From contig JAYWIR010000042.1 in the NCBI GenBank assembly GCA_036172245.1, positions 1,178,001-1,242,000 on the forward strand: a stretch of 64,000 nucleotides of DNA, written 5' to 3'. Below are positions 28,301 to 62,511 of the stretch, piece by piece (position 1 is the first letter of the stretch; the number at the start of each line of letters is the position of its first letter). A program made the position numbers and the translations under genes. The notes beneath the pieces were generated by a model. It was not told the origin of the DNA. It did not search any database and saw only the letters and a program-made list of their open reading frames with translations. Source of the DNA: Raillietiella orientalis (Eukaryota).

Positions 28301-30269
28301 AATACTTCTTTTGGAGAGTTTGGCTTCCGTTTGTTTTTAAACAAAACTGCTAAGGAAATTCGGTCGGGTCTCTGAACAAATGAGGTATACATTCATGCAT
28401 GATGTATAACAGTGGTGTATAGTTGATTTAATTTTCGTGCCTCATATGTTCCTGAAATTCATTCGTCATACATTTCCAATGCAAATTCTTTCGCCGGCTG
28501 CTTTCTCCGTTCAAATGCAATTCCGCATATTTATTTTTTCGCCAAAATCTTGATGCAACAAGTCAATCGGAATAGAAAGTTCTCGTGATTATTTCCGTTT
28601 TAAAATCTCGAAATAACTTTGAAATAATGATTTTTATTCTCATAAGGCAGTCCAGGAAAGTTTCCTTGGCTTATCTAACAAAAACACGCATCCCAGTAAC
28701 TTGTTCAAAATGGATCACACCGATTTATATGTTTTAGCTGTTTAACTGCATTCACTTTTGAAGTTTCCTAGCTCGGATCGAAGGAAATTCCCGTTCATTC
28801 AATCCACAACTTTGTGCAAAAACGATCATGAAGCACAGTTGGTTCACAGTCCATTTGCCTTTGCAGCAGACTTAAGCAAACGCCTTTAGCTGTCTCTTGA
28901 ATTTGGTAATGTTACTTTGTTTTCATAGGCGGACCCTAACCTCCAATGTATTCTGAGCACTGCCGCCCAGGACTAGATTGACTGAGAATACACAGATGTA
29001 TGCAAACTGTACAATAATCCCACCATTCCTGTTAAGCATCTTTTAAATTTATCTAACATTTTTGCTTTTCGGTTACTTTCCTGGCTTCGAGGTTTTGATA
29101 TTGCGCTCACGAATGCAATTCCTCCAGAGTGAGGCCTGGCCATTGCACCAAGGCAGGGCTGACCTCTGCAATAACCCCTAAAGCGGGTTACTCGGAAGCA
29201 TAATTTTAAGGGATGATGGAAATCCTTTTGGATTCTTCTGGGTCTGTCTTCGCTGTTTTTTCCCTTCCAACATTTTTTTTTGAGGTTTTTCAGGTTTTTT
29301 TTTTTTTTGTGGTACGCTAAGTACCTCAAGAGCCGGTCGCGTGCCTCGCGCTTCACGTGGCTCTTCAACACTGTTCCACGCCGCCAGCGGAGGGTGCGTG
29401 CTATTCTTCAAGATGGGGGCACCCCGGAAGGGGGATGGTCCTCTTCATTTCATCTTCTCCGAAGGGAATCAAGAAAGGATCCGTTAGTAGGAATTTCTTC
29501 TCCGGAGGGAACCCGCAAGGGAACCGCTCCTGTTCACTCCTCTGAAGAGAGTCCGAAGGGACGCTTCCGAAATTCAGAAGGGGCGCTGCAGCTTCCCGAA
29601 GGGGGATTCCTTGAACTCCTCTGGAGTGCTGGCCTTCTTCATGGGCCTCCTAGCTTAAACCACCACCGGTGCTTCGCCCGAGTGTCTCAGCCAACCAGTG
29701 CCATTGCAGGAGAAACTCGGAACCCAACGATGCAGTGGCGTCCGTTTTTGCCGGAGTATTCGAACCCGCGACGCACGGTGCCACGCGCGGAAACCTTAAC
29801 CACAAAGCCTCCGACGCGGGCAGGAGGTGGCTCTTTCAGCTGCTGGCAGTATTCTGGTGTTTTTTTAGAAGGTTTTGGAGCTGTCAAACAGATGAGCCAT
29901 GCCCATCATTCTTGGAACTCTAGAATGCCATGAAGATCTAATCTGGCGGGGTCACTAGCACACGTAACATTTGCTGGCCAAGTTTGTAGTGAATACGACT
30001 TGTTGATTTGCGATAGCTAACTTTGTGACGTCATCATTCAATGAGGGATGGAATTTGAAATCTTCCACTGTCAGGTGTGAGGTTCCGGAACCACAGGCTG
30101 AGGGTTTTGCCAAAGAAGTACCTTCGTTAGGGGTGTACGCTGCCGTTGCTCCAGGAATGCACATTTTCGCGAGGGACTCGACGAAAATGACAAACCCTCA
30201 GTTGAGAACAGCGTCTTCCAGACAGTTCTGAGGACCTCACTTTCAGCTCCAGACTTCTACGCAAAGGTC

Positions 30270-32675
30270 ACTGCAGAGAACTCATCCCCCGGAGAGGATG
30301 GAATACGTACGCCGGGTGGAAGAGCATTGATCCAGAAGCTGAAATGCTCACAACAATTTTTAATCTGCTAAGAAGGTTTCGGCGGATTCCGGAAGAGTGG
30401 AAGTGTATCAGAACGGTACTCATGGCGAAAAGTCCCGCAGCAGCGGGAGACATCTACAGCTGGAGGCCAAGATCCATTAGCAACAGTGCATACAGGCTCT
30501 ATGCCAAATGTTTGACCTCCCGACTCAGAAGATGGATTCTGGAGAATGAAGTCATCGGCACTCAGCAGAAGGGCTTCCTTCTCTTTGATGGAGTGTTTGA
30601 GCAAAACTTCATCCTGCAAGCACGGTTGGATGCTGCACGTCGTCTGTCGAAGGACTTCTGCGCGGTCTTCATCGACTTCGCGAATGCCTTCGGCACAGCT
30701 TCCCACGACACTATCATGGGAGCACTGAAGGAAACAAGGGCTGGAGACGACATAATCAATACTGTCCGCGAGATATATATAGGAAGTTCCACCTTCGTTC
30801 AACTGGAAAACGCAGAAACTAGGACCTTCTCAGTGCGGCGCGGAGTGAAGCAAGGACGTCCCTTAAGCTCACTCCTTTTTATCATATCGATCGAGCCGAT
30901 TCTGCGCTCAATGAGGCAAATCTACGGGACGAGGAGACATTAGTCTATGCCGACGACATGGTCATACTGAGGAAGGAAGAAAAGAAAGCCCAGGAAATGA
31001 TGGCACATTTGCAGAGGTTAGTCGACCAGACCGGCCTATCCATCAACCAGGCAAAATGCACCTCGATATACTACAGCGGCCGAACCCCCAAAGGCATAAG
31101 GGATGTGGATATCCAGGTTAAGGAAAGGGAAATCCCTTGTATTGCCTTATCACAGGCATACAAATACCTGGGAAAACCCCTTTGGTATGAAGGTCTTCAA
31201 CATACAACCGACTAAGGAAGACATCTGCCAGAAGGAGAGTGCCATACTTGAGAGTGAACTTTAGGATGGCAGAAAATAGACGCAATGAAAACCTTTTTCT
31301 ATCACAGTCTAGTTCACTACGAGAGGCTGGGAACTCACCGGAAGGAGGAATAGCAGTATGTCGACGAGCAAAAAAGGAAGAAAGTTAAGAAGGCCCTTCA
31401 CTTACCACCCTGGGCAGCTAACGAGTATTTGTACGGAGAGAGAACGAATGGCTGCCTAGAACTGATGAACCTAGCTCAAAAGTCCGATACCTTCATCGTG
31501 GACAGCTGCTCCAAACTGCTTACGTCGGCAGACAAAGTAGTAGGTAAACTTGCAAAAATAACCCTGTATGAAATCGTCCAAACACGGATGCAAGAAGCCT
31601 CGACAGAGGAAAATCTCGAGGAATTCATGACGGGCAAGAAGATCGCAAGGCCCAGCAGGGATGCTGAGAGCCTCTGGTCGAAAGGAAGGTCTCTAGACGA
31701 ATAAAGGCACGCTGGGAGTTTCGACAAGGAGAACTCAGCGTCACGGTGGACGGAATACTCTTCACCAGCAGTGCAAGAAGACGGCTCGCCTCCGGCTTAA
31801 GAGCATTGCAGCGAGAGTACGCATGGCAACCCCTTATTGAAAATCACGTTAGTCAAAGGAAGGCCATGCAGTGCGTGGGCATGCATCACTCTTCAAGCTT
31901 CTTCCATGCAAACGGAATCCACTTAAGACACCAAGACTACAGGTTCATCCATGCGGCAAGAGTGAACCTTCTGCCACTAAACCCTGCACCAACAAAAGAG
32001 GTACACGGAAGAATATGTCGACGCTGCGGAACAGAGGATGAAACATTATGCCCAACAGATGCAAAAAGCACTCGCCTTTGACGATGCAGCGCCATGATGC
32101 TATCCTGGAGATTATCAAGAAGGCCGCAACGGATGACGCCAAGTGGACTCTTGGATCGAGTAATCGCAGAGTGCCAGGAACCACCTCCAGCCTAAAACCA
32201 GACCTGGTTTTGGAAAAACGAGACCGAATAGGTGTGCTGGACATCTCCTGCCCATTCGGAAACGGAAAGGAGACGTTCACCACAGCGAGGAAAATCAAAG
32301 AAGCCAGGTACCAAGATGTCGCCATGCAACTCGGAAACACTGGGAAAATGACTAAAGTGCAGGCGATCCCTGTCGGCCCGCTTGGAGCACGGGATCCTGA
32401 AAACGACAACGTACTCCAACACCTAGGAATTCCGAAGAAGAAGCTGATGAGGCTACGACAGCGCATGGTAGCCACCTGCATCCGCTTTTCAAGTAGCATC
32501 TATGCAACGCATGTAAAAAAGAAAGATGCAGCCCAACCAGGTGATCTGGACGACGCTCTCACCCCGGAAGAGAGCACCGAGGAACCGTGAGAAACACGGA
32601 GGAAACAACACTCGCGAAAGAGCCTCCGGAACCATTCCAGCAATGGTGATTGTAATAACCCAAACGCTCAATAAA
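30270..32675 (+). mobile_element. 5'-truncated, degraded Utopia/NeSL-clade non-LTR retrotransposon (RT + CCHC + restriction-like endonuclease)
   Basis: RT motifs: ENSSPGEDG..WKSIDPE, IPEEWK, WRP, QKGF..DGVFE.NF, DFANAFG, GVKQG.PLS, YADD (30946-30957), YKYLGKP. C-terminal motifs: RFIHAAR.NLLPLN, CRRCG..DET, RHDAI, KPDLV...LDISCPF..AR..K...Y, GPLGARDPEND. AATAAA at 32670-32675. Multiple stops and frameshifts. Confidence 0.9.
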
Positions 32676-32891
32676 GTTTTCATAGAGGTAGTTTGTTTCT
32701 AATCTCTTGCATCCCTCGACTCGGCTTCTACTCTTAGATTCTAACTTTAATGTAACATTCTCTTCACATATAGTTTTCTAAAGACTTTCATCAAAAGGAG
32801 TTTCTCCAAATCAGTATGGAATTGATTTATAATAAATGCAACCCCATGACAATCCGTTAACAGTAAAGACCAGCTGCGTAAACGTAGTGCA

Positions 32892-33413
32892 TTAAGGGGA
32901 TTCTTGGCGGTGGTGTTTCTGTAGAGTCTGAAGCACTCTTTCACGAACCGGATGTTCCTGGCGTAGAATCTTGTGTGATGGTCCGGGCTGAATTTCTCTG
33001 AGCACCCCGTTTTGATGAGTTGTAGGATTTGTCGTAATGATATATATAAATAAAAAGATTATCGAACTTACTTGGTTTTCATAAGTTTGGTTGGCGGAAG
33101 AGTCTTCGGAGATGCATCCGTAGATCCACGCTTGTTGGTCCTGTTTGGTGCAGTATTTTCTGTTGGCTTCTGCACTCCCGTTTGCTTTTTCGAGATGAGC
33201 TCGTTCAAACGGGGGTCGTCGCATGGTCGGTAATGGGCGTGGATCGGACAGTTGAAGATATCCATGGAGATGCAGTGTGCCGGAAGCACCGATCTCCTTG
33301 GCGACGATGGCGTAGGAAGCGTTGGGGCGGCACCAGTGTTTAATGGCAGTGACATCATCTTGAGTGTAGTTGTTGAGTGTGAAGCACCAGTTGCTGTAGA
33401 TTCCGTATGGCAT
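32892..33413 (-). CDS. rep: Endogenous CRESS-DNA virus (circovirus/cyclovirus-like) Rep, HUH endonuclease domain only
   Basis: RCR motif I WCFTLNN, motif II TLHLHG (canonical xPHLQG) and motif III YCTK within RAHLEKANGSAEANRKYCTK, plus the typical KEIGASGT segment. No Walker A/B found. Confidence 0.92.
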   Translation of the reverse strand: MPYGIYSNWCFTLNNYTQDDVTAIKHWCRPNASYAIVAKEIGASGTLHLHGYLQLSDPRPLPTMRRPPFERAHLEKANGSAEANRKYCTKQDQQAWIYGCISEDSSANQTYENQVSSIIFLFIYIITTNPTTHQNGVLREIQPGPSHKILRQEHPVRERVLQTLQKHHRQESP

Positions 33414-33454
33414 CGTCGTCGTAGTACTGGTAAACCCAGACCTAACGTGGAGAA

Positions 33455-33460
33455 TTTATA
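33455..33460 (-). promoter_or_regulatory. Putative TATA box for rep
   Basis: TATAAA on the minus strand, ~42 nt upstream of the rep ATG and between the ori hairpin and rep, the position typical of CRESS viruses. Confidence 0.55.
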
Positions 33461-33471
33461 CGGAATAACTG

Positions 33472-33507
33472 CGCAGAAATCTGGTTAGTATTACCCAGAT
33501 TTCTGCG
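33472..33507 (+). other. CRESS rolling-circle origin: stem-loop with nonanucleotide TAGTATTAC
   Basis: Perfect 13-bp stem cgcagaaatctgg (33472-33484) / ccagatttctgcg (33495-33507). The loop ttagtattac contains TAGTATTAC at 33486-33494. Confidence 0.93.
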
Positions 33508-34073
33508 AGGTCAGGGTTTCCTAACGAAAATCTGAGTAGGGCAAATCTGCGCTCTTCAACATATGGAATAAGCACATTGCTTGTCTGTAAACATGGTAGC
33601 TAGTGCTGTACAAAAAGTCGCTATGGAGGTGCTTCAACATATAAAATATTTTGCCATGGAGGTTTGGGAAGATCCGAATCTCGGAAATGACAAGAACCCG
33701 ATCCATTCAGCAACATTCGAAAACAAATACTCGTGACATAAACAGAATACTTGACACAAGTTTACTTGGTTAGTAAAGACCACCTTTAACCAAAAGCAAG
33801 TGTTAGTACCTTTTAGTTGAAAGTTACAAAAGATTCTTATACCCTTAGTATGCAAAGAGTATCATATTAGGAGTTTTTCTCCTATCTTCAGTAGAGTCAA
33901 CACAAGACTAGCAGCGAAAAAAATACAAAAAAGAAAAAAAAACTGTTTAGTACATCGGCTCTAATGTTGCTTTTCACCCAAGAAAAACAACACTGGAGCA
34001 CATGATCATTTTTTATTATTACATTTACATAGTAATGCTGTAATATTAGCATCTGTTCATGCAAATCCACATC

Positions 34074-34872
34074 TCAATTCAACATTGTATGCCGATCATA
34101 AATGTTTCGTCTTTGCTCTTGCACTTGTCTCTTCCATTTATGCTGTTGATGTCCCACTTTGTTAAGCATGCCATTTGACACTTCTGATAAAACAGGATAT
34201 GACTCATCCTAAAACACAAATGGTTTCACTTCCTTGATCACTAGAATTCAACACTCATACTGATGTCTTTATAAAATGCAAAACCTTAAATTCATTACCT
34301 CTTCATTCCTTTGTTCTTGATATGAAATCAATGTTTTCTTAGTTAAGATCGGATCCAAACATGTTAAAAACAGCATGTAAAGAACAAGGAGAGAAATAAT
34401 CCAAATAATTGTAATGACCACAACCTAAAGATCAAACTTGAACAAGTGGCACATTTTAGCAGACAAAAACCTTTATGGTTCCGGTATTCCGACTTTCATG
34501 TTTGCATTCACATAAAAGACAAAACTCAGCTTCCTTCTTCTGAATTTCATCTTCAACTTCAGGAATGACTACATTTTTGCAAAGACTATGTAAGAACAAG
34601 TACTGATGAATAGTGACATATTTGAAATACTGCACATATGTGCTCAAAATTTTTTACATATTTCAAGGTTTCATTATTACATTAAGATTTTAACAAAACA
34701 AGTAAAAGAAACATCTAAACTAACTTTAAGTTGTAAATATAAGCAAAGTAGAATTTTACCATTTTGTAGGAAACACCTTTTTTATGTAAACTTTTCTTCC
34801 TGATTTTGAACAATTGAAAATAACACTTGTATCAGGGCATACACATTTGCATCGAACATCTTCATATTGTGT
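34074..34872 (-). CDS. TMEM9: TMEM9 family membrane protein (signal-peptide exon not located, lies further upstream)
   Basis: Exons 34872-34760, 34585-34471, 34424-34299 and 34208-34074, all GT-AG and in phase. Translation: YEDVRCKCVCP...FCLLCECKHESRNTGTIKVVVITIIWIISLLVLYMLFLTCLDP...QQHKWKRQVQEQRRNIYDRHTMLN*. Confidence 0.93.
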
Positions 34873-36929
34873 CTAATATTAGAAAATTAGTCAAAGCAGC
34901 CAGATGAATTATTCTACAGTATTCTACAATAATTTCTAAAAGTTCGAAAGATTATAAAATAACTTCAGATACTGAGGTGATACATAGTTAACTTTGTAAC
35001 AGAATTCATACAAGTTTCAACAGATGACTTCTAAACAGACGTAACTACTGTATAAATAAAGTTTAATCTTCTCAAATCTGGCTATATGAAATAATTCAAA
35101 ACATGAATGAACAATGACTCAATTGCCAAGAAAACAGATATTCATCAAATAATACAATAATCCACGCATCCATTTCTGAAAGTTTCACTTGCAATTATTA
35201 ATTTGTCTATGCATCCATTATTATTGATCAATTGCTGCTATTGAGTACAACACCTCACTGAATATTATCCTTTTTTGATAGACTTGCAAAGTGCTGATTT
35301 TATTTTATTGCTTATTTCATTAAGTATATTTTTATACTTATCTCTATAAAATTCGTACATTCCTAACTTTTTCAATATCCTCACTCACATTCAATCTATT
35401 TCTAAACCTTTGTTCCCATCTTTCTGATTTTATCATTATTGTTTATGATATAAGTATGAACACTTACTTACTTAACAATTTATAATAATTACAATAAGAT
35501 GGTGGTTGTGTAAATAAAAGCGTAAAAAAAAAAACACATATTTAGAATACTGGGAAGAACCAAGTTAAGAACAATTCAAGTGCCCCACATGCTTCCCTTA
35601 AGTTGATGACAGATAGATGTACACAGTATGCAGTAATAGCAACACAAGGAATAAAGTTCGTGATTAACGTTCACTTAATTTACATCTGCTAAGCATGAAA
35701 ATGTCAAGATTCTAAACACAATTTCAGCAACATTCACACAAACACTGTTAACATGCCTGAGATACACATCCATAGGTATGTATTGATATTCTTACATCTT
35801 GAATGAATAGAGGCAATTTCAAAAAATGAATACTTCCGAACTCTTGACAACAAAAGCAACTGCTGGTTAGACTTTATTGTACTGATTTATCGTTAAACAT
35901 TCTACTTAAAAATAATAGTACTGAAAAAATTCAAATTGAGGAACTTTTCTACAGCAATTTTTATTTAATTTTAACTTTTCATTTAACAAGAAATTCTAAC
36001 AGTGGGTACATAGTTTTACCTGGATCACAATGCATTGAGATAAGTCTCGAGTTCCATTGTTATTCGACAAAGTAACTGTCGCAAACCAATGACTTTAATC
36101 AAAATTGAGGGATGCAATCAAAACAGGCTCAAAATAAAAAAAAGTTCATCACTAAGCTCTAAATATTAACATAACTCGCAATTAAGAATACCACACAGCG
36201 AAAAGCTTATCGAAGTATATAATTATAAATATTCAACTTGATGCTTTGATGCTGCATTATGAAATACTCCTTCACATGGCACACAATAAAACAATATGCA
36301 TACGGTCAAGAAAACATACTTACATATACAGTACCGCTAATACAACAGAAAACGAACAAAATGTTTGGGTGCCAATTCATTTGTAAGTCTATCATCCATT
36401 CAAGGAATACCACAATCAAAACTTCAGAATTGTGACAAATAAATAATTCTTCATAATAATAAAACTGTTTTTCTATACGGAAGAAAAGGAAGAATTATTA
36501 AGTTCTTTTCATAATTTAAATCATGATTTAAGAATAACTTATTTGAATATTTTGCCTTGAGTGCTAAATTACTTTGAAAAAGGATGAGATTGTGACATCC
36601 AGTTTAATTCATAATAAAAAAAAAAGGAATGAACGAGTCATGTACTGTGTTCATGGAAAATGTTTCCTTTAAGAACTAATAACGATTATTAGTCAAGTAT
36701 CTGTTCAAGAACAAGAATAATTTTGTAAAGATTTTTACATCCATGTAAAAATATAAGGAAGCACCAGATCGATACAGAAATTATGACACTGACAATATAG
36801 ATTCGTAATCAAGCTAAAGACTATCAAACTGATGAATCAAATGGAAATTTCCTTAAGATCAAGGGTAATTTCCTTGTTATCACATTAATGATAAATAATT
36901 TAGTAATTTCCTTTTCTATCACTCTTTAG

Positions 36930-45760: not shown

Positions 45761-48700
45761 ATGCATCGTAACATGATAGCATCGGAAGATGATGACAAAT
45801 TTCAGCCCACAAGAGACGAATATGAAAAACTCACGGATGCTTTCAAAAACAAAAAGTTTCGGGAAATGTTCGTTGAGTATTTGGAAGAGCTCGAGGATCC
45901 CGAAAACAAAAAAAAGTATGAGGAAGAAGTGAAGGTTCTGTATACAAAATTATTATCAACTGATTGTACAAATAATTGTTTTCTTATTTGTGAATAACTG
46001 AATATTCTTCAAGACTGTACGGAATAGAAAAGCTCTAGTCATATATCGTGTAACTGGGTTTTGCGTTTAAAATGTACAAAGCGAGCAAACGTCATCAAAG
46101 TTGTTTTCAGAAAGTATTAAATCTGTAATCTTGTATATCAAGTTTCTACTTGGTAGATTTATAATTTTGCATTTTCTTTTTTGTTTTCCTCATTTGACAG
46201 TATTGCAATTTTAGATTCTAGAAAGGGAAAGAGGATATGAAGTTACATTTCTTCATCCAGAGGCAGGATATGTTTTGAAAACCAGTGTTAATGGAAAAAC
46301 TAAATGTTTTATTAATATGTGTTCAGATGAGAACATTCAGCATCCATCAAACAGCTATTCAGAGCTTAAGAATGAACAAGGATCTGTATGGTCTATTCCC
46401 TATTCTCAGTCACCTCCTCGCAAAGAATTTGATAAACAAAAGAAGCAGTGTTTGGTTTATGATGTCATTTTCAACCCATCAGTTTTTGAATTGATAAAGA
46501 ATTTTAAAAACATAAAACAAATGGTTGAAACAGTAGCTTTGGATGCTGTGGAAAAGAACTTCAAAGTTAATCTTGACAGAGTCAACATTTGCTATCCAAA
46601 GCTCAAGTACAAAGGTACTTCCCGATCTATAATGATCCGCAAAGCCTTAAAGGATGCTCCTAAGAGAAGTCCAGAAGATATAGAATTTGATGCATTGATT
46701 AAATATCCCCAGATAAGAGACACTGAACTGAAATTTGAGTCAGTAATACAAAAAGGATTTCAAGAGAGTGGTCAGTTTGGATACACAACCCCACAATGCG
46801 TACTGAAATACCGGGATCACATTGACTTGCAGAACTGCCTTAACAATCAGGATCTTCATGCTCCTTGTCAAGAATTAGTATTGGAAGTGGATTTGCCTTT
46901 GTTGAACTCTGCAGCAAATGTGGAGCTGGATATCCAAGGAAGGCAACTCAAGCTTCATTGTGACAGTCCTGCAAAGTATCATTTGGAATACAAGCTGCCC
47001 TGCAATGTTGATGATCAAAAATGCCGTGCTCAGTTCGATTGCTCCGAAAGAAAGTTGCTTGTGCTGATGCAGCTTGTAGGGAATGGGCAAAACAGATGGA
47101 AAGATAATGGTGGTGATGGTGGTGACATTGACAGTGAAGAAATCACCAGTAGTAAAGGAGACAGTAATGGAGCAGGGGATAGGCACAGCGAAATGCAGGG
47201 AATGCCAATGGAAAAAGACTATATTCCTCCTTCATGTGATCAGTCTGATGCAGATCCTGCTGACGAACTGCTTAGCTGTACAAGTTTTGAAGCAGCTCCT
47301 TGCAGCATTTGTGATCAACCTGTTTGTCAAATGCCAGATTATTTCTTCCTGTGCACTTTACACAAAGGTTGTCTCTTATTCCATGTCAGCAATGTTGTGC
47401 CTTCATCAGTGAATGTAGAGTTGATCAGCAAGCAGGCAATCTATGCTACTTTCAATTCTGTAGGAGAAGGCTTAGTTCCTTTGTTCTACTCTTTCTATGC
47501 TAAATTCCCTCCTGAAATCACTCTACAGTCTCCAGTCACACCAGTCTTCACTGAGAATAACCATTTGTCCATTGTCTTCACCAAGGAAGAAGGAAGTGGA
47601 TGCTGGAGCAACGGTTTCATTGGTAGGAATGAGACAGAAGCCACAGAAGTTCACCTTGCACATCACATTCAAGTAGCATCTATCTTGAAAGATAAAAACG
47701 TTAGTATTATGATCTTTTGTTAGCTTCCACTGTTTAGTTTTCCAGGACTTTTACCTCCAGAGCACTGCAGAAGTAAGAGACATCACTGTGCAAGCCATGG
47801 TATCAGATGAGTGTACAGAGTTATGCCAAGAATTTATGCTGGCTTTGAATCATTCTGTGAAGGTAATTGATGCCTCATTAAAGCACATTGCGGAATCCTA
47901 GCGCGAACTCCGTCTGTTAGAATCAGGAAGCAAATGCTGCCTGTGACAGTCCTTCTAAGGTCAAGAGTAATTCCAGCACACCTGAACTAGAGGAAGTAGA
48001 ACTCCAGCCCAATGCTAATAATCTTGGTGATGACGAAGTGCTGTCAAACAGTACAACCCCAGTCCCTGGATTTGATCATGCTCATTTTCACCATAGAAAT
48101 AGTGAGTTGTACTTTTTCTCCTCAAGAAAGCCCAGCTGTTCCAAAGACCATAGCAGTCTTCCAGTTTCCTCTTCTGTGAGCCATGTAGTAGGCAAACGCA
48201 ACTTGAACCGCAGTGTGTCTGAATGTCAAGATCTCGTATGTTATTTACTGACTGCTTAAATCTGAGAGCATCCTGTCTCAATTTTGCAGAGCTCCTTAGC
48301 AACTCTTTCACCACGGAAGGGCATTCTGAAATGCAGGAGCAGAGCCCACTCAGAAAGCACCATGGACATTGGATTCTGTTCACTTCCTGAACTGTGTTCC
48401 ATGTCCCAGGACGTAGAGAATGAGTCAGAGCCCAAGTCAAAGAAAACAGTGCAATTCAATGACAAAGTATCATGTCAGCTTTTCAGGTTGGACTCAGAGC
48501 ACATGTGAATGACTACTGTATGTACTACATGTGATCGTTTCCCAGATTCAACTCTAGCATCTTGGGCCAGAGGAAGAAGAATCATCGTAAGCAGGTAAAA
48601 AAGAGGCAGGCCCAAGAACGCAGGACATCAGAATCCAACGAGCAGGTCAAGGAAGCAGAGTGCAAATCCGAAGCAGAGGAGCTCGCCAAATTGAATACAG

Positions 48701-49075: not shown

Positions 49076-50284
49076 TTTTGTTTTTGAGTTTTGTTGTGTT
49101 GAATTGTACCCAAATTCTTGACTCCCAATATCATGTGGAGTAGAGGCACCCACACCAATTACGTTTCGTTGTCGTCTTGTTTTTGAATGTACAGATATTT
49201 TTTTGTTATAAAAATTGCAAGCTAGAGTAAAAAAAAAGTTCATGCCCATTCTTTTTCACGTTTTCCACAATATATATCCATCTTGGGCGCAAAATGTGTG
49301 CACGTTAGTGCTGTGGCGTGGCTCCCCCAAAACTCCGAAGGGCTGCAGCGCTCTTTTCATCTTTGTGGATTTTTGATGCATCTGCTGTCTGTGTTTAAGG
49401 GAAGTTCCTTTGTAAAATTGCGCCCAGTGCCCTTTTCAATTTAATTCACGGTCAATACTCTGATTTCTATTTTTTTGTATTGATTCCGTTTCTCGGTTGG
49501 GAAAAAGGAAAAATCACTAGAAATGACAAAGGAAGCCAACGACAACCTCACACGGCTCTGCGTTTATAGATATTTAGAGAGGTTGTGAGCACACAGTCCA
49601 AAAGAGAACTGCAAATTGTATGTTAGGTCAAGTTTCTTTTGCAATTCACATGCAAACACGCCAACACGTTTGTGTGCAAGAGTAAAAAATCAACACCCAC
49701 CAATGTTTTTTTTTACATGATTCACGTGTGCTTCTTCGTTGGTCCCTATTCTAAAAGCTTACATGCAAATGGCCCACTTTGCTGTGAGGTGAGAAATCGA
49801 TTTTTCTTCGATATTTAAGAGGATTGACTTGATAAGTAGTGGTAGAATAGGTAAAGAGAAAATCATCAGCTTGCGACGTGAGTCACAAGATATACTCAAG
49901 TATTTATGGTGATACCCTTCCGCGTCTGCTTGACCCACAGACTCGTGAAGATTTTCGAGTTCCTGCAGTTTCTCCTTTCCCGAATTCCAGCCTCCTTGTC
50001 ACGATGCTCGTGGTGGTGAATGTGGTTTGGGGTTTGGGTCACAGTCGCCAAGGACACAGTCCCGAACCTGTTGCAATCCCGAGAGAGGAAAATCCCGAAA
50101 ACAGGGTTCACCATTACTGAGGAAACTGTATCGAACCTTTTCGAAAACGAAATGTATAGCATAGAGAATTGTAAAAAGAAAATGCTGGCAATTTGAAATA
50201 GTGGAGAAACAGGTTAACCCCCCCCCCCAAAAAAAAAAAAACAAAAAAAACAAAAAAAAACAGCGACAGTTCGACATTCGAAAA

Positions 50285-50830
50285 AGTGTGTTGGAGGGCA
50301 GTTGCACGGAGGTAGTCCATAAGAGCTGAGATGGTATTTTGAAGTATTTTATCGCGATGAATCGTTGCCTTTTTTTTTTTTTCTAGGGCATGGCTCTCCT
50401 CGGAAAATACGTTCACATGCATTTTCGGAGTGGCGCTGCTCTTTTAAAAATTCTTCTGTGATTCGATAGGCACCGACATGGGCATTCCCTATTAAATTTT
50501 ATTATCCGCCTCCAGCACCATGCTTCTATGTAATTTCGGGTACGCGGAAATCCATTCCGCGTGCACTCTCACACGCAGACCACAAATTTGGCAGGAAGAA
50601 CACTGGTGATGGAACAGGCAACACCGATGCATGTCTGCTTGCCCTCCCCTGCACACAGTTATGCTCAAACCAGTCAGTAACTTCTCTGGCTCTTTCAGGC
50701 ACATGCAGCTTCGATCCGTTGAAAGCTCCTGGAAATTCATAAGCTGGAAGGAATCCTAGTGCTGACAAATGGCGCATTTTTATACTGGAGTTTCGGCTGC
50801 TGCCGTACTGCGTGACCAATCCACTCGTCC
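50285..50830 (-). mobile_element. Mutator-like (MULE) transposase C-terminal remnant
   Basis: LGFLPAYEFPGAF..K.H.PE.A.EVTDWFEHNCVQGR...PVFFLPNLWS and a terminal MDYLRA match the LAFLP...DWFE.NYV.GR...FPP.LWSV...DYLR pattern of MULE transposases. Confidence 0.8.
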
Positions 50831-51699
50831 GAAGTTTCCGTCAAATGCATCGGGCTGAATGGAAGAAACGAACTTTTATTCTCAACGCCTGGACATTCCC
50901 GTCGTCGCGCAGCCCGTTGACTGCTTCGACAGGGTCACGCGCAACCGACGGGAGGGCGCGATTCCCCGTTTGACCGCTGGGAGTCTGGCCGGGTGGCTCC
51001 CGCCTGCCGGGCAAGCGGGCCGTCCGCAGAGAAACTCGACCAACCGCAGCTGGTCCTTTCTCCTTTTTCCTCTCCGATCGCGGGCACTTTCTCCTGAGAG
51101 GAATCCCGCGGTGCAGCGGACGTTGGCCTCTCTCCGGAGTCCGGCTCTTCGATCGATTCCGGAAAAGAGTGCCTCCCCGCAGCCCTGGACCATCTTCCGG
51201 ATACCCTACGGCGACTGGTCGCGCTCGCAGTTCTGTTTCCGGCTTCCACGCGTCGAGAGTTCGAAAACTCGCTTCACCTCCACTGCACGCCTCCTCGAGG
51301 CGTCCCTGCCTTGGCGGACGATCGCAGCGTTTGCCGCCGTCAGACCATCTACGGCCTGGAAGAAAGGTGTTTAGTGGCGCTGTTCGCCTGTTTCCCTTTC
51401 TTTTCCTTGTCGCGGAACCTGGCAGATGGAGTCTTCCCTTCCTCCTCGCTCCCGCACGCACGGGTTTTCGCGAATCCCGGATTCAGGACTCCTTCGCCGG
51501 TCGCCTCTATTTGCTCCTCTTCCTCCACTTGAAGCAGGAGTGTCTCGGGGAGTGGATGTGGCCGGACTGCCTTCCCTGCCCGAGACGGATGAAAGATTTC
51601 CTCTCTGGCGATTTGCCTCCCAGCACTTCGGTGCACTTTCGGAGGACCACCATGGTGGCTTCCTCCACTATCGGGCACTCATGCCCCTTCTAGGGAGTC

Positions 51700-52450
51700 A
51701 CTTTGGTGTCCTTTCCGCGTGCATCTTTGTAGCGCTTTGTTTCATGTTGCGTCTGCGGCAGGTCGCTTGCTGATGTCCTCTTTTTCTTCCTCCTTGGATT
51801 CTTCTGTCCTGCTCTTCCCTTCTACGACGACGCCATGACGCCAGAGACAGCTCCCACCTCCGCCTCGCCATGGAAGGCGTGTTTGGGGCGCTTTCTCTCT
51901 CCGGGACGGTCTTCCCTTTCAGGATCTGCCGTTTTCCCTGCTGTCGCAGGTAGTCCCGCCGGAAGTCCTTCCTCGCGGCAGAGGTGCCATCACTCCTCCT
52001 CGCTCGGGAGCACGGATGCGATTGACCCACTTGGACGCATTTCCGGCAGCTTGCCGATGAGCCTGCCATGGTCCGATACCCCAAATTTTCGCAGTCTCCG
52101 TCATAATGGGAGAAGTGTTGCCACACACTGCTTCGGGGGATGGCCACTTCCAGAGAGAAACCCAGAGTCCCACGCAAGATCCTCTCCTTGACCTTTGATT
52201 CCCCGAAAACCAGCCTGTCGGGGATTCTGCTAAGTCCTTGTGCACGGAGCAGCCGCCGACAAGGGGAACGGCGGCTTTCGTGCGCTGGACGTCCATTTCC
52301 CTGCCTTGGATCTCATGGGCCGTGCTGTTTTGGCGACCAACACTTCCGGATGTGCAAATCGGTTTGCGGACGTTCTTCGTCCCGAGAGTCATTCGCCTGG
52401 TCGAGTGTGGGGGCGTTCCCACTGCTCCCGCCGCTGCCGTTGCTAAGGTC
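51700..52450 (-). mobile_element. Possible LINE ORF1 (gag-like) fragment
   Basis: RIPDRLVFG followed by a degenerate knuckle CRKCVQVGQSHPC. Confidence 0.35.
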
Positions 52451-52949
52451 AACGACGACGACGCGTTTGATGCGGAGTCTTACTCGCGAGGTGCCCCAGC
52501 GGTTAGTCCTTTCCTCTCACCGCGCTGGACTTCCGAAACACAGGGAGAGAAAGGGATCATTCGGTCTCTTACCTGAAAGTCTTCGGTTTCCATGAATTTG
52601 CACCAACGCCATAGTGTTGAGAGAGACCAGCCGTCATCCACCAGCGCCCTCAACTCAAAGGCGATGCAACCTTCCACCAGCTTTCCTCAGACCGGCTTGA
52701 GAAAGGGGGGAGGGTATTTCTGTTGGAGAGTCCCAACAAACGGGAATCACAAACAGAAGTAAAACTCGAGTGAGCAACGTTTGTTCACCTCGCCAGTTCC
52801 ACCTTCTGCTAGAATTCCCCCCATGCCCCCCACAAACGATGGGAAGAATTTATTTTCATAACTTATTTATACAAATAAAGACGCGAAACAACTTTCTTTC
52901 AGCGTTTACTGCGCTGAAATGTGGCCTTGCTCTTTCCAGGTTACCGCGT

Positions 52950-55900
52950 CCTTGGAATTTCACCAGGGATCACTGGGTTTCGCTCGCACCTGGCCGTTGC
53001 CTTGCGTTCTTCCCGGAGTGCAGAGATTTGTCTGGGCGGTGTTGACACCAATTTCCAGAGCTGTTCCTGGGTTTTTCCTTTCCCTGGTTTTTGCCCTTCT
53101 CACTGGGTTACTAGCGATGACGAGGGCAATGGTTGCCCTTACCATGGGACTATACAGGGGAAAGCGGCCGTCTCTTTGAAATAATCTACGCAGGATTTCT
53201 AGTTTTATCTGCACGTCGCCTTCTTGACCTCTTCCCAGTCTCGGCATAGCATTGGGCGGATGAAGACTGGGAATTTTCTTGCTGAAGCTTTCTGCAAACA
53301 GGGCATCCGTGTTGAGACAGGCATCAGCCTCCATTCTTTGACCAGACCAAGATCTCCCTTCGGCAGAAATATCATCCTTACCTTTCGGAAAGACGCAGGA
53401 AGTCTCCCTTCCTCTAGGATCCTATGCGTCGGTTCTTGGAAAAAGCATTGGTAGACATTCAGATACCGTTGACATTGAGAGATTGGTACACTATCGGATC
53501 CGGTGGCCATATCCTTCCGCAGTCCAGAGAAAGGTCCTTTCGATTTCTTCCGTGGTGACTCCTTCCCTTCCACGAGTACTGCCGATCATTCGCATCTCTT
53601 CGAAGATGCTGCAGGATTTTGCTCTCTGCCTCCCCGCACAGTGCGACTTGAGAACGAAAATGTTCGTCATGGTGGAGCTAATGACAGCCAAGATTCCATA
53701 AGTCTGTCCTTCGTACTGGATGCAAAAGATAGCCAAGGAGATGCTCTTCTTTTCCAGAAATCTGATACCTCCTTTGATGCTTTGGAATACGCGCCTCTTT
53801 TCGTACTGGTCTCACTACTTGGAGAGGGAGCAGTCTTTGCTTTTTCCGTCCCTAGTGCGCTTTCATCTTCCATCTTCCTATCTCATAGCTAAAAGTTGTT
53901 GAAGAAATGGGTCCCATGTTTCATCCCATCCCTGTTATCAACTCTACGAACGGTGGCGTCGCGCAGCATTGCTTCTGTGACTCCTTGGTGACGGAATCAG
54001 GCCGGGCACGCAGATGAGCAGACCTTGCAGCATGTTGCTGGAGTCGTGGCGGCGTGGAGAGATGCAAATGGAGAAACCAATGACAGGGACGCCATCCACT
54101 TCACTCTTTGCTTTCTACGGATAGCGGTAGCTCCTGAACATCTACATAAAGCAGGATCCTGCAGGCCTCCTTCAAAGGATGAAGAGGAAAGCCGCCAGCA
54201 TACTGTGACTCCTTCCCGTACCCCCCAAAATTGCGCTATTTTTATTTTGTTAATTTTTATTTTTGTTTGCCCTTTCCCCTCTGCTTTCATGGTAGACCTG
54301 CGAAAGACCATGCGTAGACCGGTAAAATGGCAAAGTATATACAAAAAGGACGTTTGTGATGTTTATTTTATTTCTAAATAAACGCCCGGGCGAATCCGAT
54401 TAAAAATTCTTCCTGAGAAGGTTCTATGTCTTCTAGTAAATCGCAGCAGGGTGTGCTCCGAGAGCAGAGTCTACTTGCCTGGGAACCACTACCCCGTGTC
54501 CTCGCTGAAGAGCCATCCCTTTCATTGTTTTCTATGCATTCCCTTAACTGCTTACTACCTGATACGCCGCCACCAATCTGATGGCCAGCATCTTAAACTA
54601 CTTTTTGTAGTAGGTGGGATGCTTGGAGCTTGTTCCTCTCCTGGAGAGGGTCTACCCAGTAGTGCTCCGAAGTCGGCCTTCTTCCATGGGGAGGACGACA
54701 GCTCAAGAGCAAAGTCAAAAAAACGGAAGCTGAAGAGCCCTCTTGTCTGGCTCACGAGCGGCTCCCGGTCTCTTGCGAGGTCGATCGGTCTGTGTCGGCC
54801 GGCCATCCACAGAAGTGCGGAGGCAGTTGCCGATTCGCCCTGCTTGCTCGGCAATCTCCGCTCCACTCGATGTTTAATGGGATGTTCAGATCGCCCACGA
54901 CGACAGCGACGGTGTGGCCTTTCTGAGCAGAAGAGCTCGCGCTGATTCCGCGCGCCGATCCTTTCCCTCGCGTGATCCGCACGCAAACCCTGGAAACAGG
55001 CGAGTCTTTCCAGTCCGGGAGCGTCCGGGCTCGACGGATTCGGCCGTGCCGCGGAGAAAACGGCTTGTGTACGATCCCGCTTTCGAAGAGGATCTCCCCA
55101 CCTTCTTCTTGCCGGCGCTGACGAGGGAAGCTGGGCATCTCTCGAGTTCCAGTTCGACCGCGATCCACCTAGCGTGTTTTCTTGCATGCACACGATGTGG
55201 TCGCGCTTGATGGTCCTTGTGACGCGCCTCCACCTGTCCTGGTTCCACGTTCCATCGATGCTCCAGGGTACAGTACGGGCACTCGTGATCGATCGTTATG
55301 AGGAGGGGTTCACTGTGTCTCAGTGTCTGGTCTTCCCCTTCTTCTTTCTTTGCCTAGGAGACTGGAGGCTCTTCCTATTGGCAGCCGTATCTTTCCCCAT
55401 GTCGCTTCCAGACTCAGCGTGGTCTGTGCTTTCCAGGATACGTTTATTATGCTTCCTGGACCCTTAAGTTGGTCCTCCTCGTCCTCCTTTCAGGAAGCGT
55501 GGTCTTCTTGCTCGCCATTCCAGTGAATTCGTCTGTCACCAGATTCAACTGTGCTTTCAGCTCCGACCTCTTCTCCTCGTTCGTTGCTATCTGCGGCGAT
55601 GGCGTCCTGAACGTCGCGAATCCGGGGCGAGGCATCGCCTTGTTCCTCGATGCTGGTGCCCAGTCGCACCTCTCTTTCATCATGGAGTGCGAGAACGATG
55701 CCCCTTCCCCCGCAAACTGAAGATCGGCAATGGGCTGGTCGATCTTTGGTACGTGGGGAAGCCACTGTGGCCACTGTGACGTCACGGGATGTCTAAAAAA
55801 GAGGTGAACGAGCATCCACTCTTTCGAGAATGTCAACTGCTCGCTCATTCACCTGTCTTTCTTCCTGCTCGGCTACCATGTTAGCTCGGCTACCAAGCCC

Positions 55901-56330
55901 ATGTTATCTGGCGTTCGCGAGGGTTGCAGCTCTTCCCTGGATCCCTTTCTCTTATTTTCCCTATCCCCCATTTCCGTAAAGGCTGCGCCTGCGACTGTAA
56001 TCTCTCTTCCAGATTTTCCTTCCATTTTCTGTTTCGTCCACTTCGGAAAGGTGGACTCGGGGAATCGAGCCGCTGTGAATGCTTCCTGAGTCCTCGCTCC
56101 GTAGGGTCCGATCACCCGCAATGGCAGCACTGCCTCAGTTGCAGGGGCGGCGTTGGTGGCATTGTGGCCGCGGTCTCCGGCGTGGTGCCAAACGTTGCGG
56201 GCTTGAATCTCACCCGGAGAAGGGCGGAAGCCGAGAGATGGGGGTGAGTCGTGAGTCCCAATCCCCCCCCCTCAGGATGACGCTGGTTGGCCTGGTAGGC
56301 TTCGAGCGCGGCATTGGTTGACACCCGGTC
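52950..56330 (-). mobile_element. Decayed L1/Tx1-like element (ORF1 end, APE endonuclease, RT N-half) with a nested opposite-strand insertion
   Basis: CCHCG knuckle-like motif (~56115-56130), TVPWSIDG...IKRDHIVCMQE (APE start, ~55175-55280) and ATGSDSVP..ILEEGRLPASFRKVRMIFLPKGDL..KEWR (RT, ~53320-53510). Confidence 0.75.
54020..54395 (+). mobile_element. Nested 5'-truncated 3' end of the L1/Tx1-like family
   Basis: GVVAAWRDANGETNDRDAIHFTLCFLRIAV is homologous to 24.3 kb. T-rich UTR, AATAAA at 54377-54382, then palindrome cgcccgggcg. Confidence 0.7.
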
Positions 56331-56334
56331 ACTC

Positions 56335-57180
56335 TGGGGCTTTTATTTATGAAAAATAAACGTCTGTGGCAAGAGGTTTGATCCTACCACGTTACTTATA
56401 GCCACGAGAAAGAACTTTCCTGGAACTGAAATGCAGGCCAGCGAGGTTCGCCTCGACAGCACAGGGGAAGGTAAGACAAACAAAAAGAAAAAAAAATAAA
56501 ACAAAAAAAATCAAAAAATGGGGGGGTTCGGGAAGGGGTCATTAAGTGCTGGAGGATGTTGTCTGCATCCTATGCAGGATGCCGACAAGTTCCTGTTTCA
56601 AGACTCCCAGATGGTGCCATCTCCACGATCCTCATGAAGAGTACAGCAAAGTAGATGGCGTCCCTTGGTGCGGCGTGGGCAGGACGGCCGGCCTGGATCC
56701 ACCTGGTGATCCCCAGGGGCAGGCACATCAGGTGCCTTGGCGTTCCGTTGGGGGACTTCTGCGTAGCAGAAACCTGGTCCGGCCGTCTTCAAAAAGTAGA
56801 AATGGCGCCCGGCCCGTTCCAGAAGGGCAGGTTTTATCTGCCGGAACGGTCTGCGGTGTGAAACACGTTCGCGGCTCCCATCTTCCGCTCCTTACGATGG
56901 CGAACGGTGGACATCTCAGCGAAGTATTGGAGAGTCTCCTGATGCGTTCCTGCACGCATCCTTTCCAGTCGTGTATCCCGTACGGAAGGACTTGCCTCTT
57001 ACCTTTTGTGCTCTGTCCGAAAGGTAAGAGGTCCATAGTCCATTCACTCATCAGCTTCTTCCTGCGATCCCGCAGCGAGCAGCACCCCCAGCAGCGCTTG
57101 GCTGCATCCGCGGGATTGTGGAGGCCTGGGGTGGAGCCGACGAGGGAAGAAACGGGAAACCATGCAAGAAGCATGCAATA
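56335..57180 (-). mobile_element. 3' part of the L1/Tx1-like family (inverted copy)
   Basis: Reverse-complement similarity to 24.3-24.7 kb (e.g. gggacgccatct.ctttg, aaacaggaacttg.cggcatcctgca, gcgaacctcgc.ggcctgc) and AATAAA on the minus strand at 56342-56347. Confidence 0.75.
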
Positions 57181-57964
57181 GTGAGATGGTACGACTCTGA
57201 AATGGGTAGGGATTCTCTCCAATAAAACACTGGAACCCTTTTCAGTCAGACGAGGTGGAGATCAAATGTGTTGCTGCAGCAAGTAAATTAAAAAAAATTC
57301 CTACCCTGGAAGGCTGAGAGCTCATCGTCCTCTGCTCAAAGATGAGCCGAAAATTCCCAATTCGTGCTTCCATACATTCACCTAGTTTGTTTGCTTAGCG
57401 CCTAGTAGTGATCTGGAAGGGAGTGTGGAGGAATTGCCAGTAATTTTAATTATGACAAATCAAAGAGCTGCACCTCTTGCTGATCCTTTCCCTTCCAGAA
57501 GTGGCAGTCGGAGGAAGAATCACTGGAACAGGGGAAGGTGCTGAAAGCGATCCCTCATGGAAGTATTAATATCTTCCATGGTCGAGTCGGGGACTGTGAT
57601 TAATCTTGAATGATGGGTCGGTGGCTACGCGTGCAGTTCATCTTGGGTATGATTTTCGAAAGCAGAAGTCTTGGAAGGTATGGGGCGTTTAATACAGCAG
57701 AATATGGAATCCAAACACCCATGATTTCGATGCCAGGATGGCACAGTAGAACAAATGGGAGCAAAATTCGTGTGACCACAAGAGGACAAGACGAACTTGC
57801 AGCACGAATTATAAGTTCGTTAAGGAAATTCAAAATAAATTTTCAAACTGGGAATACTTCTTGCAATTCAAGGAACTGAAAAAGAATATTAAATGTTCCT
57901 TCGACCCAAATAGAATTTCGTCTTCATGAGAGAAAGTGTATTGAACTGCTGCATTGCGTTTATA

Positions 57965-58209
57965 CAGTGGTACCTCGAACGAGTTTTTCAAATAACGAAT
58001 AACGGAAACGCTTGAAATGCACAGAAAGCACAAAAAAAGAGGAACGATTCGTGAGGCACTCTATGGAAGACTAAAGCGTTCCCTTGTTTCATCATGAGAG
58101 TGGGCTTCCGAGAATGTTCCGAGTGTCGAAACCTTTTTTTTTCTCGTGAAAATGCGACGAGTACTGAGTTTGACGAGTTCCGAAACCGTCGAGTACCGAG
58201 GTACCACGG
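57965..58209. mobile_element. Tc1/mariner (pogo/Tigger-like) MITE
   Basis: TIRs cagtggtacctcg (57965-57977) / cgaggtaccacgg (58197-58209) match at 12 of 13 positions. TA on the left flank and CA on the right (probably a mutated TSD); no ORF. Confidence 0.75.
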
Positions 58210-59149
58210 CATTGTGTTTATTTCGGACGTCTCTGTACCGGGAATGCAGGCTCATCAACAACCGAGGAATAAGATAGATTTGTGTTGAAAGTGAAATGCT
58301 GTGAGAACAAAGCAACAGAAACTGATTAAAATATCTATCTATCTATCCAGATAGATAGATTGATAGATGGAATTGCAGAGATTTAAAATAATCGGTACAG
58401 TCATCTCACCTAAGTGACCTGATTTTAAATCCCTTCTGCATTTATGCTTTCGCACGAGCAGACTTTTTCATCCGGCAATATCTTGCTTTCAGCTGTTGCT
58501 GTATAAAACAATCTGTTGCATCTTGGAAAAAGGGGGAAAAAAGGGCTTCAACCAGAACAGGAATATCGATGAGAATAAATCCATATTTACAAAATCTTTG
58601 CAAGAATCAACAGATCCAGAAGTGTGAAGAACACATGGCAGCAAACAAATTCAAAGCAATGTGTTTGTGCCTCACCACAACCTGCTCTCTGGATTTGGAT
58701 GCTGTTCTTCAGTGCTATCACACGCCCCTGAACCTTCTTGTTGCCACCTTCGCCATGGTTGCCACTTCCTCAGCGCTTCAGCTTTCATCAGAGTTCGTGT
58801 ACTCGAAAGACAAAAAAAAAAAAAAAACGCCAGCAGCGGTCACCCTGCCCCTTAGCGGATTAGGTAGCGACCACTTCTTTCCCAGACGTGCCTGCAGGCC
58901 GCCGGGATTCCTCTGGGAGATGATTCCAGCGAGTCCTGGGTGCCGCCTGCAGCCGGAAATGCAGAGTTTCCGAGAGCCGAGGAGGTTTGTCTCTTTCTCC
59001 TTGGTCTGCTCCCTTCCACTCCTTCCCCTCCGTCCTGCTCCCTGCCCTGTTAAGCGATGCTGCTCCCACGACGAGCAGAGTTCAAGAAGGTCGCGTTGCC
59101 GGGGGGGGGGCGCTCTCTCCTCCGTCACCCTCCGTCCCTCCTCTTGCAG

Positions 59150-59276
59150 AAGCGCGACAACATGGTGCAGAAGTGCCATTCGCTGAGCCTGGAGGCGAAG
59201 ATCGCGGACTCGGAACAGAACGAGCTGAAGATGCTGAACTGCCAGCTGAAGGAGGACAACGAGAGTCTGAGTTCAG
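59150..59276 (+). CDS. Internal exon of an unidentified coiled-coil host gene
   Basis: Pyrimidine-rich acceptor ctcttgcag, GC3-biased codons reading KRDNMVQKCHSLSLEAKIADSEQNELKMLNCQLKEDNESLSS, then a GT donor. Neighbouring short exon-like segments lie at ~58870-59090. Confidence 0.4.
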
Positions 59277-62200: not shown

Positions 62201-62476
62201 CAGCGTGAGAGGCAAAGAACTCTTCCCTCTTGGAGCCTTCCTGCGTTCATAGGGTGATCCCCTATGACTTGGAGAGCGAACATGCACCCTCGGGCGGCGT
62301 GGAACAGTGTCGACGAGCTGCGTGAGCCCCTAGGCGGACGGTTCCTCAGTGCTTGTCGAATCGAGAAAAAGGCAAACCCGAAAAAAACACACACACGCAC
62401 ACTGGGAGGAAAACAGCGAAATAGAAGAACTCAAAGTGATCTCCGTCGTCTGCTGAGGATGTGACCCATCTTCGGA

Positions 62477-62511
62477 CGCTTCTCTGCCTTTTGGCTAAGA
62501 TCAAAGTGCAG
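62477..62511 (+). ncRNA. RNU2: U2 snRNA 5' fragment (pseudogene or retrotransposon target remnant)
   Basis: cgcttctctgccttttggctaagatcaaagtgcag vs U2 5' end (AT)CGCTTCTCGGCCTTTTGGCTAAGATCAAAGTGTAG: 2 mismatches in 35 nt. The rest of U2 is absent. Confidence 0.85.

Follow-up and report, generated by a model that had tools for sequence, protein, structure and literature searches.

A 64,000-nucleotide stretch of the Raillietiella orientalis genome (GenBank assembly GCA_036172245.1, contig JAYWIR010000042.1, positions 1,178,001 to 1,242,000 of the forward strand; hereafter the window, numbered from its first letter) carries a short piece of DNA derived from a CRESS-DNA virus, one whose genome is a circle of single-stranded DNA that encodes Rep. 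We consider it, with a probability of roughly three in four, to be a truncated endogenous viral element (EVE) of about 0.9 kb from an unsampled CRESS-DNA virus, an ordinary fossil rather than a working element. The viral sequence, an origin hairpin next to the HUH nuclease domain of a replication-associated protein (Rep), is located between host-like flanks on one contig with 0 N: the reverse transcriptase of a long interspersed nuclear element (LINE; 30206-31215) on the left and a kintoun/PIH1 gene (46215-47723) on the right. A preliminary description of this DNA had recognised both viral parts and had found neither helicase nor capsid with them, and this was borne out. It had further suggested either a recent integration or a specially preserved unit of origin and nickase. 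A fairly recent integration is plausible, as the HUH exon is little decayed, with a mid-range profile score; the preserved unit was not supported, for the reasons given below.

The rep gene was identified from an open reading frame (ORF) on the minus strand, which in the six-frame ORF list runs from stop to stop for 187 codons (173 from the ATG; 32892-33455). This ORF matched the Pfam family Viral_Rep (PF02407), which the preliminary description had named for a check, with 56.9 bits (cut-off 26) and an E value of 2.6e-15, the alignment spanning ORF residues 22-104 and profile positions 3-81 of 82. The three rolling-circle replication (RCR) motifs reported previously are all in place: motif I is FTLNN (33369-33383), motif II is HLHG (33261-33272) and motif III, with the catalytic tyrosine, is YCTK (33144-33155). 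The best matches of the domain in the PDB were circovirus Rep nuclease domains (E 5e-14 to 1e-7), of which the first (E 5e-14) was 7kii, given as Muscovy duck circovirus Rep in the available excerpt of PMC9973303. The complete HUH endonuclease domain is contained in the first 114 codons (33072-33413, minus strand), referred to here as exon 1, which has a GC content of 51%.

When scored against a profile of its relatives, exon 1 reached 104.6 bits, while the 77 free viral relatives ranged from 73.5 to 129.0 (median 107.3) and 29 of them scored lower; the profile and the relatives were both picked by similarity to the window Rep, which may flatter this score. Of the 23 columns with a conservation of 80% or more across 130 relatives, it also retains 21. 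Both departures are in motif II, which reads TLHLHG in the window and TPHLQG in the relatives, with the Q present in 130 of 130 aligned relatives and replaced by H here. An explanation of this change by decay or drift was dropped after the same TLHLHG (in the context TLHLHGYLQL) turned up in one of the 79 metagenome relatives, contig L114. This contig also has the TAGTATTAC hairpin just upstream of rep and on the opposite strand, as in the window. It is therefore more likely that the TLHLHG form of motif II is a lineage trait, and the nuclease exon appears, as judged from its conserved columns and score, to have undergone little decay, none of it detectable.

The origin is located to the right of the rep start, on the plus strand. 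The hairpin (33472-33507) has stem arms at 33472-33484 and 33495-33507 that are perfectly complementary over 13 bp and enclose a 10-nt loop, TTAGTATTAC, in which the nonamer TAGTATTAC occupies 33486-33494. Folded as single-stranded DNA, the hairpin has a centroid energy of -14.3 kcal/mol (z = -6.2), which was matched by none of 200 dinucleotide shuffles. The nonamer occurs once in the 64 kb (0.10 expected) and is the sole origin nonamer within the window. As in CRESS-DNA virus origins, the hairpin is close to rep, at a distance of 59 nt from its ATG. A TATAAA box read off the sequence (33455-33460, minus strand) is 42 nt upstream of that ATG, at 33413. The hairpin, its plus-strand nonamer and the TATA box of the preliminary description were thus all recovered, and so was its statement that a nonamer on the strand opposite rep is the arrangement of the genus Cyclovirus: the Circoviridae profile of the virus taxonomy committee ICTV gives the Cyclovirus pattern as (T/n)A(G/t)TATTAC at the rep 5' end and on the opposite strand, with which the nonamer is consistent (PMC5656780). 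When 24 nt of the hairpin (inner stem plus loop) were searched for exactly in IMG/VR, there were 0 matches.

Iterated sequences by the origin are putative Rep-binding sites in both circovirus genera (PMC5656780). The previously suggested iteron, ACCCAGA, is indeed present at 33434-33440 and 33493-33499, and its proposed role was rejected, as the repeat is at chance level: about 0.7 hairpin-derived 7-mers are expected in 200 flanking nt by an arithmetic estimate and one was seen, and the observed total of three such hits was reached in 1,196 of 20,000 shuffles (p ~0.06). A better candidate is AAATCTG, which is found in the 5' stem arm (33477-33483) and is repeated directly to the right of the hairpin at 33528-33534 and 33543-33549 (plus strand), with a spacing of 15 nt. 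Of the 16 copies of AAATCTG in the window, 4 fall within 73 nt here, and only 70 of 20,000 shuffles had a hairpin 7-mer in two copies in the flanks. The hairpin is also bracketed by a 12-nt inverted repeat (11/12 identical; 33432-33443 and 33508-33519), beside which the repeat scan placed a CCTAACG pair (33441 and 33520).

The source is an unsampled CRESS-virus lineage, because the closest Reps are at most 51% identical to the window domain among 5.8 billion clusters. No locus among the IMG/VR and metagenome contigs exceeded 47% identity, and the one named cyclovirus match, Cyclovirus roach Rep 1 (P0086), had 41%. The preliminary description had proposed a phylogeny against CRESS Reps; homology to them was clear, and in a tree of 131 HUH domains, which included one named cyclovirus sequence for comparison with that genus, the window domain fell in no supported clade and had an end branch of 0.68 (median 0.36). 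A nonamer hairpin was found in 55 of the 78 viral relatives, on the rep strand in 37 and on the opposite strand in 18, and at least 7 of these 18 are, like that of the window, no more than 100 nt upstream of rep. The layout is cyclovirus-like, because an origin on the capsid gene (cp) strand and a rep intron are both Cyclovirus traits in the ICTV profile (PMC5656780); the likeness is one of layout, from which membership of the genus does not follow. Compared with that genus, the nonamer, the opposite-strand origin and the rep intron are alike (PMC5656780) and the closest solved Rep domains are circoviral, whereas motif II is HLH here and HLQ there, and the named cyclovirus Rep is 41% identical. 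A cyclovirus genome is circular, 1.7-2.1 kb in length and carries a cp gene, while the fragment is of about 0.9 kb and no capsid similarity was found in it.

The ORF had been described as an uninterrupted rep. However, just its first 114 codons (33413-33072) are homologous to Rep, and in the last 59 codons, as far as the stop at 32892, the frame runs on (read-through) across an intron relic and a linker piece that is out of frame. The Rep similarity of exon 1 ends with TYENQ at 33072 and the next bases are GTAAGT, a splice donor (33071-33066) that opens a 34-nt spacer of 82% AT (33038-33071, minus strand). We interpret this as the relic of an intron by comparison with the introns of relatives. 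The spacer contains no AG besides the one within the donor, and without an acceptor AG a canonical splice cannot connect exon 1 with the sequence after it.

The comparison with relatives supports this interpretation. Rep is split at the same profile position (104/105) in 4 of the 78 related IMG/VR contigs (L005, L011, L053 and L070). Three of these have in-frame GT-AG introns at this point, of 54 nt in L005 (320-373) and L011 (505-558) and of 60 nt in L070 (887-946), with 68-81% AT; in L053 the split is at about 2015-2110, the intron ends not being resolved by the script. Such short, AT-rich GT-AG introns in rep imply eukaryotic hosts for these four contigs. Several cycloviruses have introns in their ORFs, rep included (PMC5656780), and the "replication-associated protein 1" of Cyclovirus roach, with 105 residues, looks like a comparable first exon. 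In L114 (a 2.5-kb contig; 1440-2514), Rep changes frame past motif III, passing through three frames in about 70 nt, and this could reflect frameshifts, short introns or errors of a low-coverage assembly.

Downstream of the spacer, a remnant of the Rep linker could be traced in another frame than exon 1 (32915-33037, minus strand), ending before the position of Walker A. The alignment is weak and collinear: with the first Rep profile it scored 1.4 bits, the best of 12 local pieces, and with a larger profile, made from 102 Reps, its score was 2.5 bits, which 6 of 2,000 shuffled versions of the piece attained. No Pfam family was found on 32747-33058, and BLASTP of the piece against the C-terminal Rep ORF of L114 was insignificant (E 21).

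No other part of a virus was found. A Rep profile of 282 positions, built from 34 full-length Reps found with the window domain, was run against every one of the 1,994 pieces of the window's six-frame translation and matched only this ORF, and only at the nuclease positions 6-102. In tblastn, 47 full-length Reps gave no significant helicase match anywhere in the 64 kb, and the superfamily 3 (SF3) helicase of a complete Rep (Walker A/B and motif C; PF00910) is missing from the window. For the capsid, 172 non-Rep ORFs from the 78 related contigs gave no match at 33510-36000, a weak test because capsids diverge fast, and the longest plus-strand ORF to the right of the hairpin has 54 codons and is not arginine-rich. 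The reported lack of both genes therefore holds for the window, with that reserve for the capsid. No second copy of the fragment or of the LINE was found when 28-35 kb was compared with the window by self-BLAST, or by tblastn and the Rep profile. Release by the rolling-circle mechanism requires both an initiation and a termination site, that is, two cleavage sites, and strand displacement by the helicase part of Rep, which replication by this mechanism needs as well. The window has a single origin, and neither a helicase nor a capsid was found there, so that rolling-circle replication and excision are not to be expected. The idea of a specially preserved origin and nickase is therefore not upheld, as rep is broken directly after the HUH domain (no acceptor, linker out of frame, no Walker A), and the window has one origin and one copy.

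The extent of the insert was read from its base composition and from a direct repeat. In 80-nt windows, the GC fraction is 0.29-0.38 over 32640-32880, rises to 0.41-0.59 across most of 32840-33720, with a dip to 0.31-0.34 at the AT-rich spacer (33000-33119), and is 0.30-0.33 from about 33740. The steps at about 32850 and 33740 coincide with the two copies of a 14-nt direct repeat (13/14 identical), AGTAAAGACCAGCT at 32862-32875 at the left step, where the Rep-derived sequence ends, and AGTAAAGACCACCT at 33772-33785 at the right step (both plus strand). The copies are spaced by 910 nt and form the longest direct repeat in 32500-34200 besides a local duplication. An exact 11-mer pair within 50 nt of both GC steps arose in 10 of 5,000 block shuffles. 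In our reading, the repeat delimits an insertion of about 0.9 kb; it could be a target-site duplication, a match duplicated by crossover, or chance.

The right-hand part of this block (33553-33771), with a GC fraction of about 0.40 compared with about 0.31 in the flank, could be intergenic or the 5' end of cap. It contains an imperfect local duplication in two parts, one starting with CTTCAACATAT (33554-33570 and 33632-33648) and the other ending in GCYATGGAGGT (33609-33630 and 33642-33663). A 10-mer, TTACTTGGTT, is present at the junction of exon 1 and donor (33068-33077) and at 33762-33771, and a 9-mer, TGGTTAGTA, is present at the stem end and loop start (33482-33490) and at 33767-33775. 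The second copies of both adjoin the right 14-nt repeat on its left; each alone is at chance level, several 9-10-mer pairs being expected by chance in 1.7 kb by an arithmetic estimate.

Taken together, a viral fragment would have been inserted into AT-rich DNA of an invertebrate-like animal genome, downstream of the decayed LINE, and it contains the intergenic origin and about the first 40% of rep (the HUH exon, the intron relic and the frame-shifted linker piece). As it still has both the origin and the intron donor, it would have arrived as DNA and not as spliced mRNA, from which we infer integration at the DNA level. Because the Rep similarity stops at the edge of the inserted block, it was probably cut before the helicase domain on arrival, and would thus have been dead on arrival. 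The fragment most likely does nothing, and its good preservation is most likely due to a fairly young age and not to selection.

There is also a narrower possibility, that the 910-nt unit is a complete defective (subgenomic) CRESS circle, integrated through one crossover where it matched the host over 11 nt. Such a crossover would duplicate the match on both sides, and the sole mismatch between the repeat copies is just past the shared 11 nt, as this model predicts. Defective DNAs of geminiviruses and other single-stranded DNA (ssDNA) viruses are small circles in which the origin and 5' gene parts are left and the rest is lost, and the content of the 910-nt unit is the same. However, such DNAs are extrachromosomal in infected cells, whereas the window holds a chromosomal copy in an animal, for which a circular origin would have to be assumed. 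We hold this possibility to be tentative and rather doubtful.

Several observations weigh against the interpretation as a truncated fossil. The linker piece, used as a single sequence, had 0 matches in 1.84 billion proteins, so that the evidence for this part is weak. A read-through of 59 codons without a stop has a chance of about 5% by a rough estimate, so that a selected helicase-less product keeps a small probability. An alternative in-frame splice exists on paper, using a 76-nt GT-AG intron (33071-32996). With regard to the ends of the insert, an exact 11-mer pair anywhere in the 1.7 kb is found in 1,531 of 5,000 block shuffles (31%), and the GC-step boundaries were fixed only after the GC profile had been inspected, so the repeat is persuasive by its location alone. 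The 76-nt intron was rejected as unlikely, as its 3' half is not AT-rich and its removal would delete the part that resembles the linker of relatives.

The state of the fragment was compared with that of its neighbour, the decayed non-LTR retrotransposon of the LINE type (29217-32590, plus strand), to which the viral fragment is antisense. It was recognised from two pieces of reverse transcriptase (RVT_1, PF00078; 30206-31215), and in our reading the 3' ORF pieces, which have no Pfam family, belong to the same LINE. By eye, its C-terminal pieces have CCHC-like and PD-(D/E)xK-like motifs as in R2-type elements, again with no Pfam family. Its coding frames over 30206-32590 are 2, 1, 1, 0 and 2, which amounts to at least three frameshifts plus one stop in 2,385 nt. 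At this density of disruptions, an exon of 342 nt stays undisrupted with a probability of exp(-0.57) = 0.56 by an arithmetic estimate, and the fragment itself has about one disruption per 500 nt, including the break between exon 1 and the linker, which is of the same order as in the LINE. The claim that origin and nickase are cleaner than the neighbouring transposable elements (TEs) could therefore not be sustained, as the difference is statistically indistinguishable; an open exon, expected at 56%, gives no support to a preserved unit either.

The last ORF of the LINE ends at 32590 and is followed by AATAAA at 32670, and the insert starts about 280 nt downstream of that ORF. The possibility that the LINE had split rep was rejected, as tblastn and the Rep profile found no remaining rep anywhere in the window, including beyond the LINE. 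About 130 nt to the right of the insert is an A-rich tract on the plus strand (33917-33942; 26 nt, 23 of them A). If this tract is the poly(A)-like tail of the LINE, the fragment lies in the 3' untranslated region of that element and would be the younger of the two, which alone would explain a difference in preservation.

Other roles for the fragment were considered. Other EVEs, those of arthropods, have been described as sources of small RNAs of the PIWI-interacting RNA (piRNA) type, and the fragment could likewise be a small-RNA template directed against its source virus. Its context is compatible with this, as it is at the edge of a 30-kb GC-rich, TE-like block (4-34 kb) that holds the decayed LINE, to which it is antisense. 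However, most long ORFs of that block have no Pfam family and its TE nature is largely unverified, and we regard such co-option at the RNA level as unlikely.

Co-option as a protein is more improbable still. The 173-residue ORF, or a spliced form of 196 residues, would be a nickase without helicase, of the Rep' or RepA type, acting on the adjacent origin, and it could interfere with related viruses or form a minimal HUH mobile unit. The unspliced product would be similar in type to circoviral Rep' or to the RepA of mastreviruses, and a title listed in PMC5656780 refers to nicking and joining by the helicase-less Rep' of porcine circovirus 1. The complete HUH domain with its three motifs and mid-range score, the intact TATA box, hairpin and iteron-like repeats, and the open read-through of 59 codons would all fit this. 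However, an open exon is what the decay rate of the neighbour leads one to expect, the gene is broken directly after the HUH domain, and the window has a single origin and a single copy, whereas release would need two sites and a helicase. With one copy, one nonamer and no helicase, the window lacks what marks HUH mobile elements such as Helitron, IS91 or IS200/IS605-like elements, namely several copies with conserved ends and either a helicase of their own or two cleavage sites. In addition, no paralogue or orthologue more than 51% identical was found among the 5.8 billion clusters, and nothing here argues for the product being made or selected. The least probable explanation is an assembly artefact, in which a free or contaminating CRESS virus contributed reads that were misjoined into a host contig; small circular viruses are indeed common contaminants, but the fragment is internal to 64 kb of gap-free contig (0 N) and would require two false joins, it has a broken gene and is not a whole genome, and a short direct repeat is present at both composition steps.

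As a truncated EVE, the fragment belongs to a known class of elements consisting of a truncated rep with an origin, and it is notable for how well it is preserved, for its intron relic and for the repeat at its flanks. Endogenous viral elements of CRESS-DNA viruses (CEVs) are described as widespread in invertebrates in the available part of Rosario et al. 2018 (PMC6186406), with cyclovirus-like ones in mites and in the tapeworm Hymenolepis microstoma, and they likewise are Rep-derived sequences fixed in an animal chromosome. In H. microstoma, the Walker-A motif is the site of an interruption in one copy of Rep, near to where the rep of the window ends (PMC6186406, same part). Compared with animal CEVs as presented there, the window keeps about 40% of rep together with the origin hairpin, the TATA box, iteron-like repeats and an intron relic; in a far-from-exhaustive set of partial texts we found no mention of animal CEVs with an intact origin.

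The closest build is that of plant elements. The geminivirus-related DNA (GRD) of Nicotiana, as given in the sections available of Filloux et al. 2015 (PMC5014472), is also a truncated rep with the intergenic virion-strand origin hairpin, and the geminivirus-derived element EGV1 of yams keeps the hairpin and a TATA box, as the window does. In contrast, GRD and EGV1 derive from plant geminiviruses and have TAATATTAC, while the window is from an animal genome and has TAGTATTAC; they form tandem multi-copy arrays that are degenerate or, in yams, expressed, while the window has one copy with an open nuclease exon (PMC5014472). Non-homologous integration of ssDNA-virus fragments has been reviewed (PMC3187698).

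In the wider neighbourhood, an intronless ORF of 502 codons (46215-47723, plus strand) has the PIH1 N-terminal and PIH1 CS domains of Pfam and is kintoun/DNAAF2-like. Its best matches, with 29-38% identity, are from insects, rotifers, a springtail and fishes. No other clear host gene was found in the window and, given these animal matches, it identifies the host as an animal. When 39 further long ORFs of the window were searched against Pfam, 37 had no family, and the LINE reverse transcriptase and the PIH1 gene were all that was recognised. Two blocks, 4000-34000 and 50000-64000, have 45-62% GC and many long ORFs on both strands within DNA of 30-40% GC, and they may be unrecognised TEs or something else. 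No tandem repeats were found in the window.

For scans of animal genomes, our results advise caution, since an open nuclease exon beside an intact hairpin is not by itself a sign of selection. The flanking repeat offers a concrete and testable model of integration. If the 910-nt unit did arise as a defective circle, it would be the fossil of a replicon of the defective-interfering type in an animal genome, holding the origin and 5' gene parts. The nuclease domain and the origin look competent, going by their motifs, and in that case a related virus in the host could recognise the fragment. Direct host evidence is missing for most metagenomic CRESS viruses, and through this EVE an unsampled, intron-bearing CRESS lineage is now tied to an animal host.

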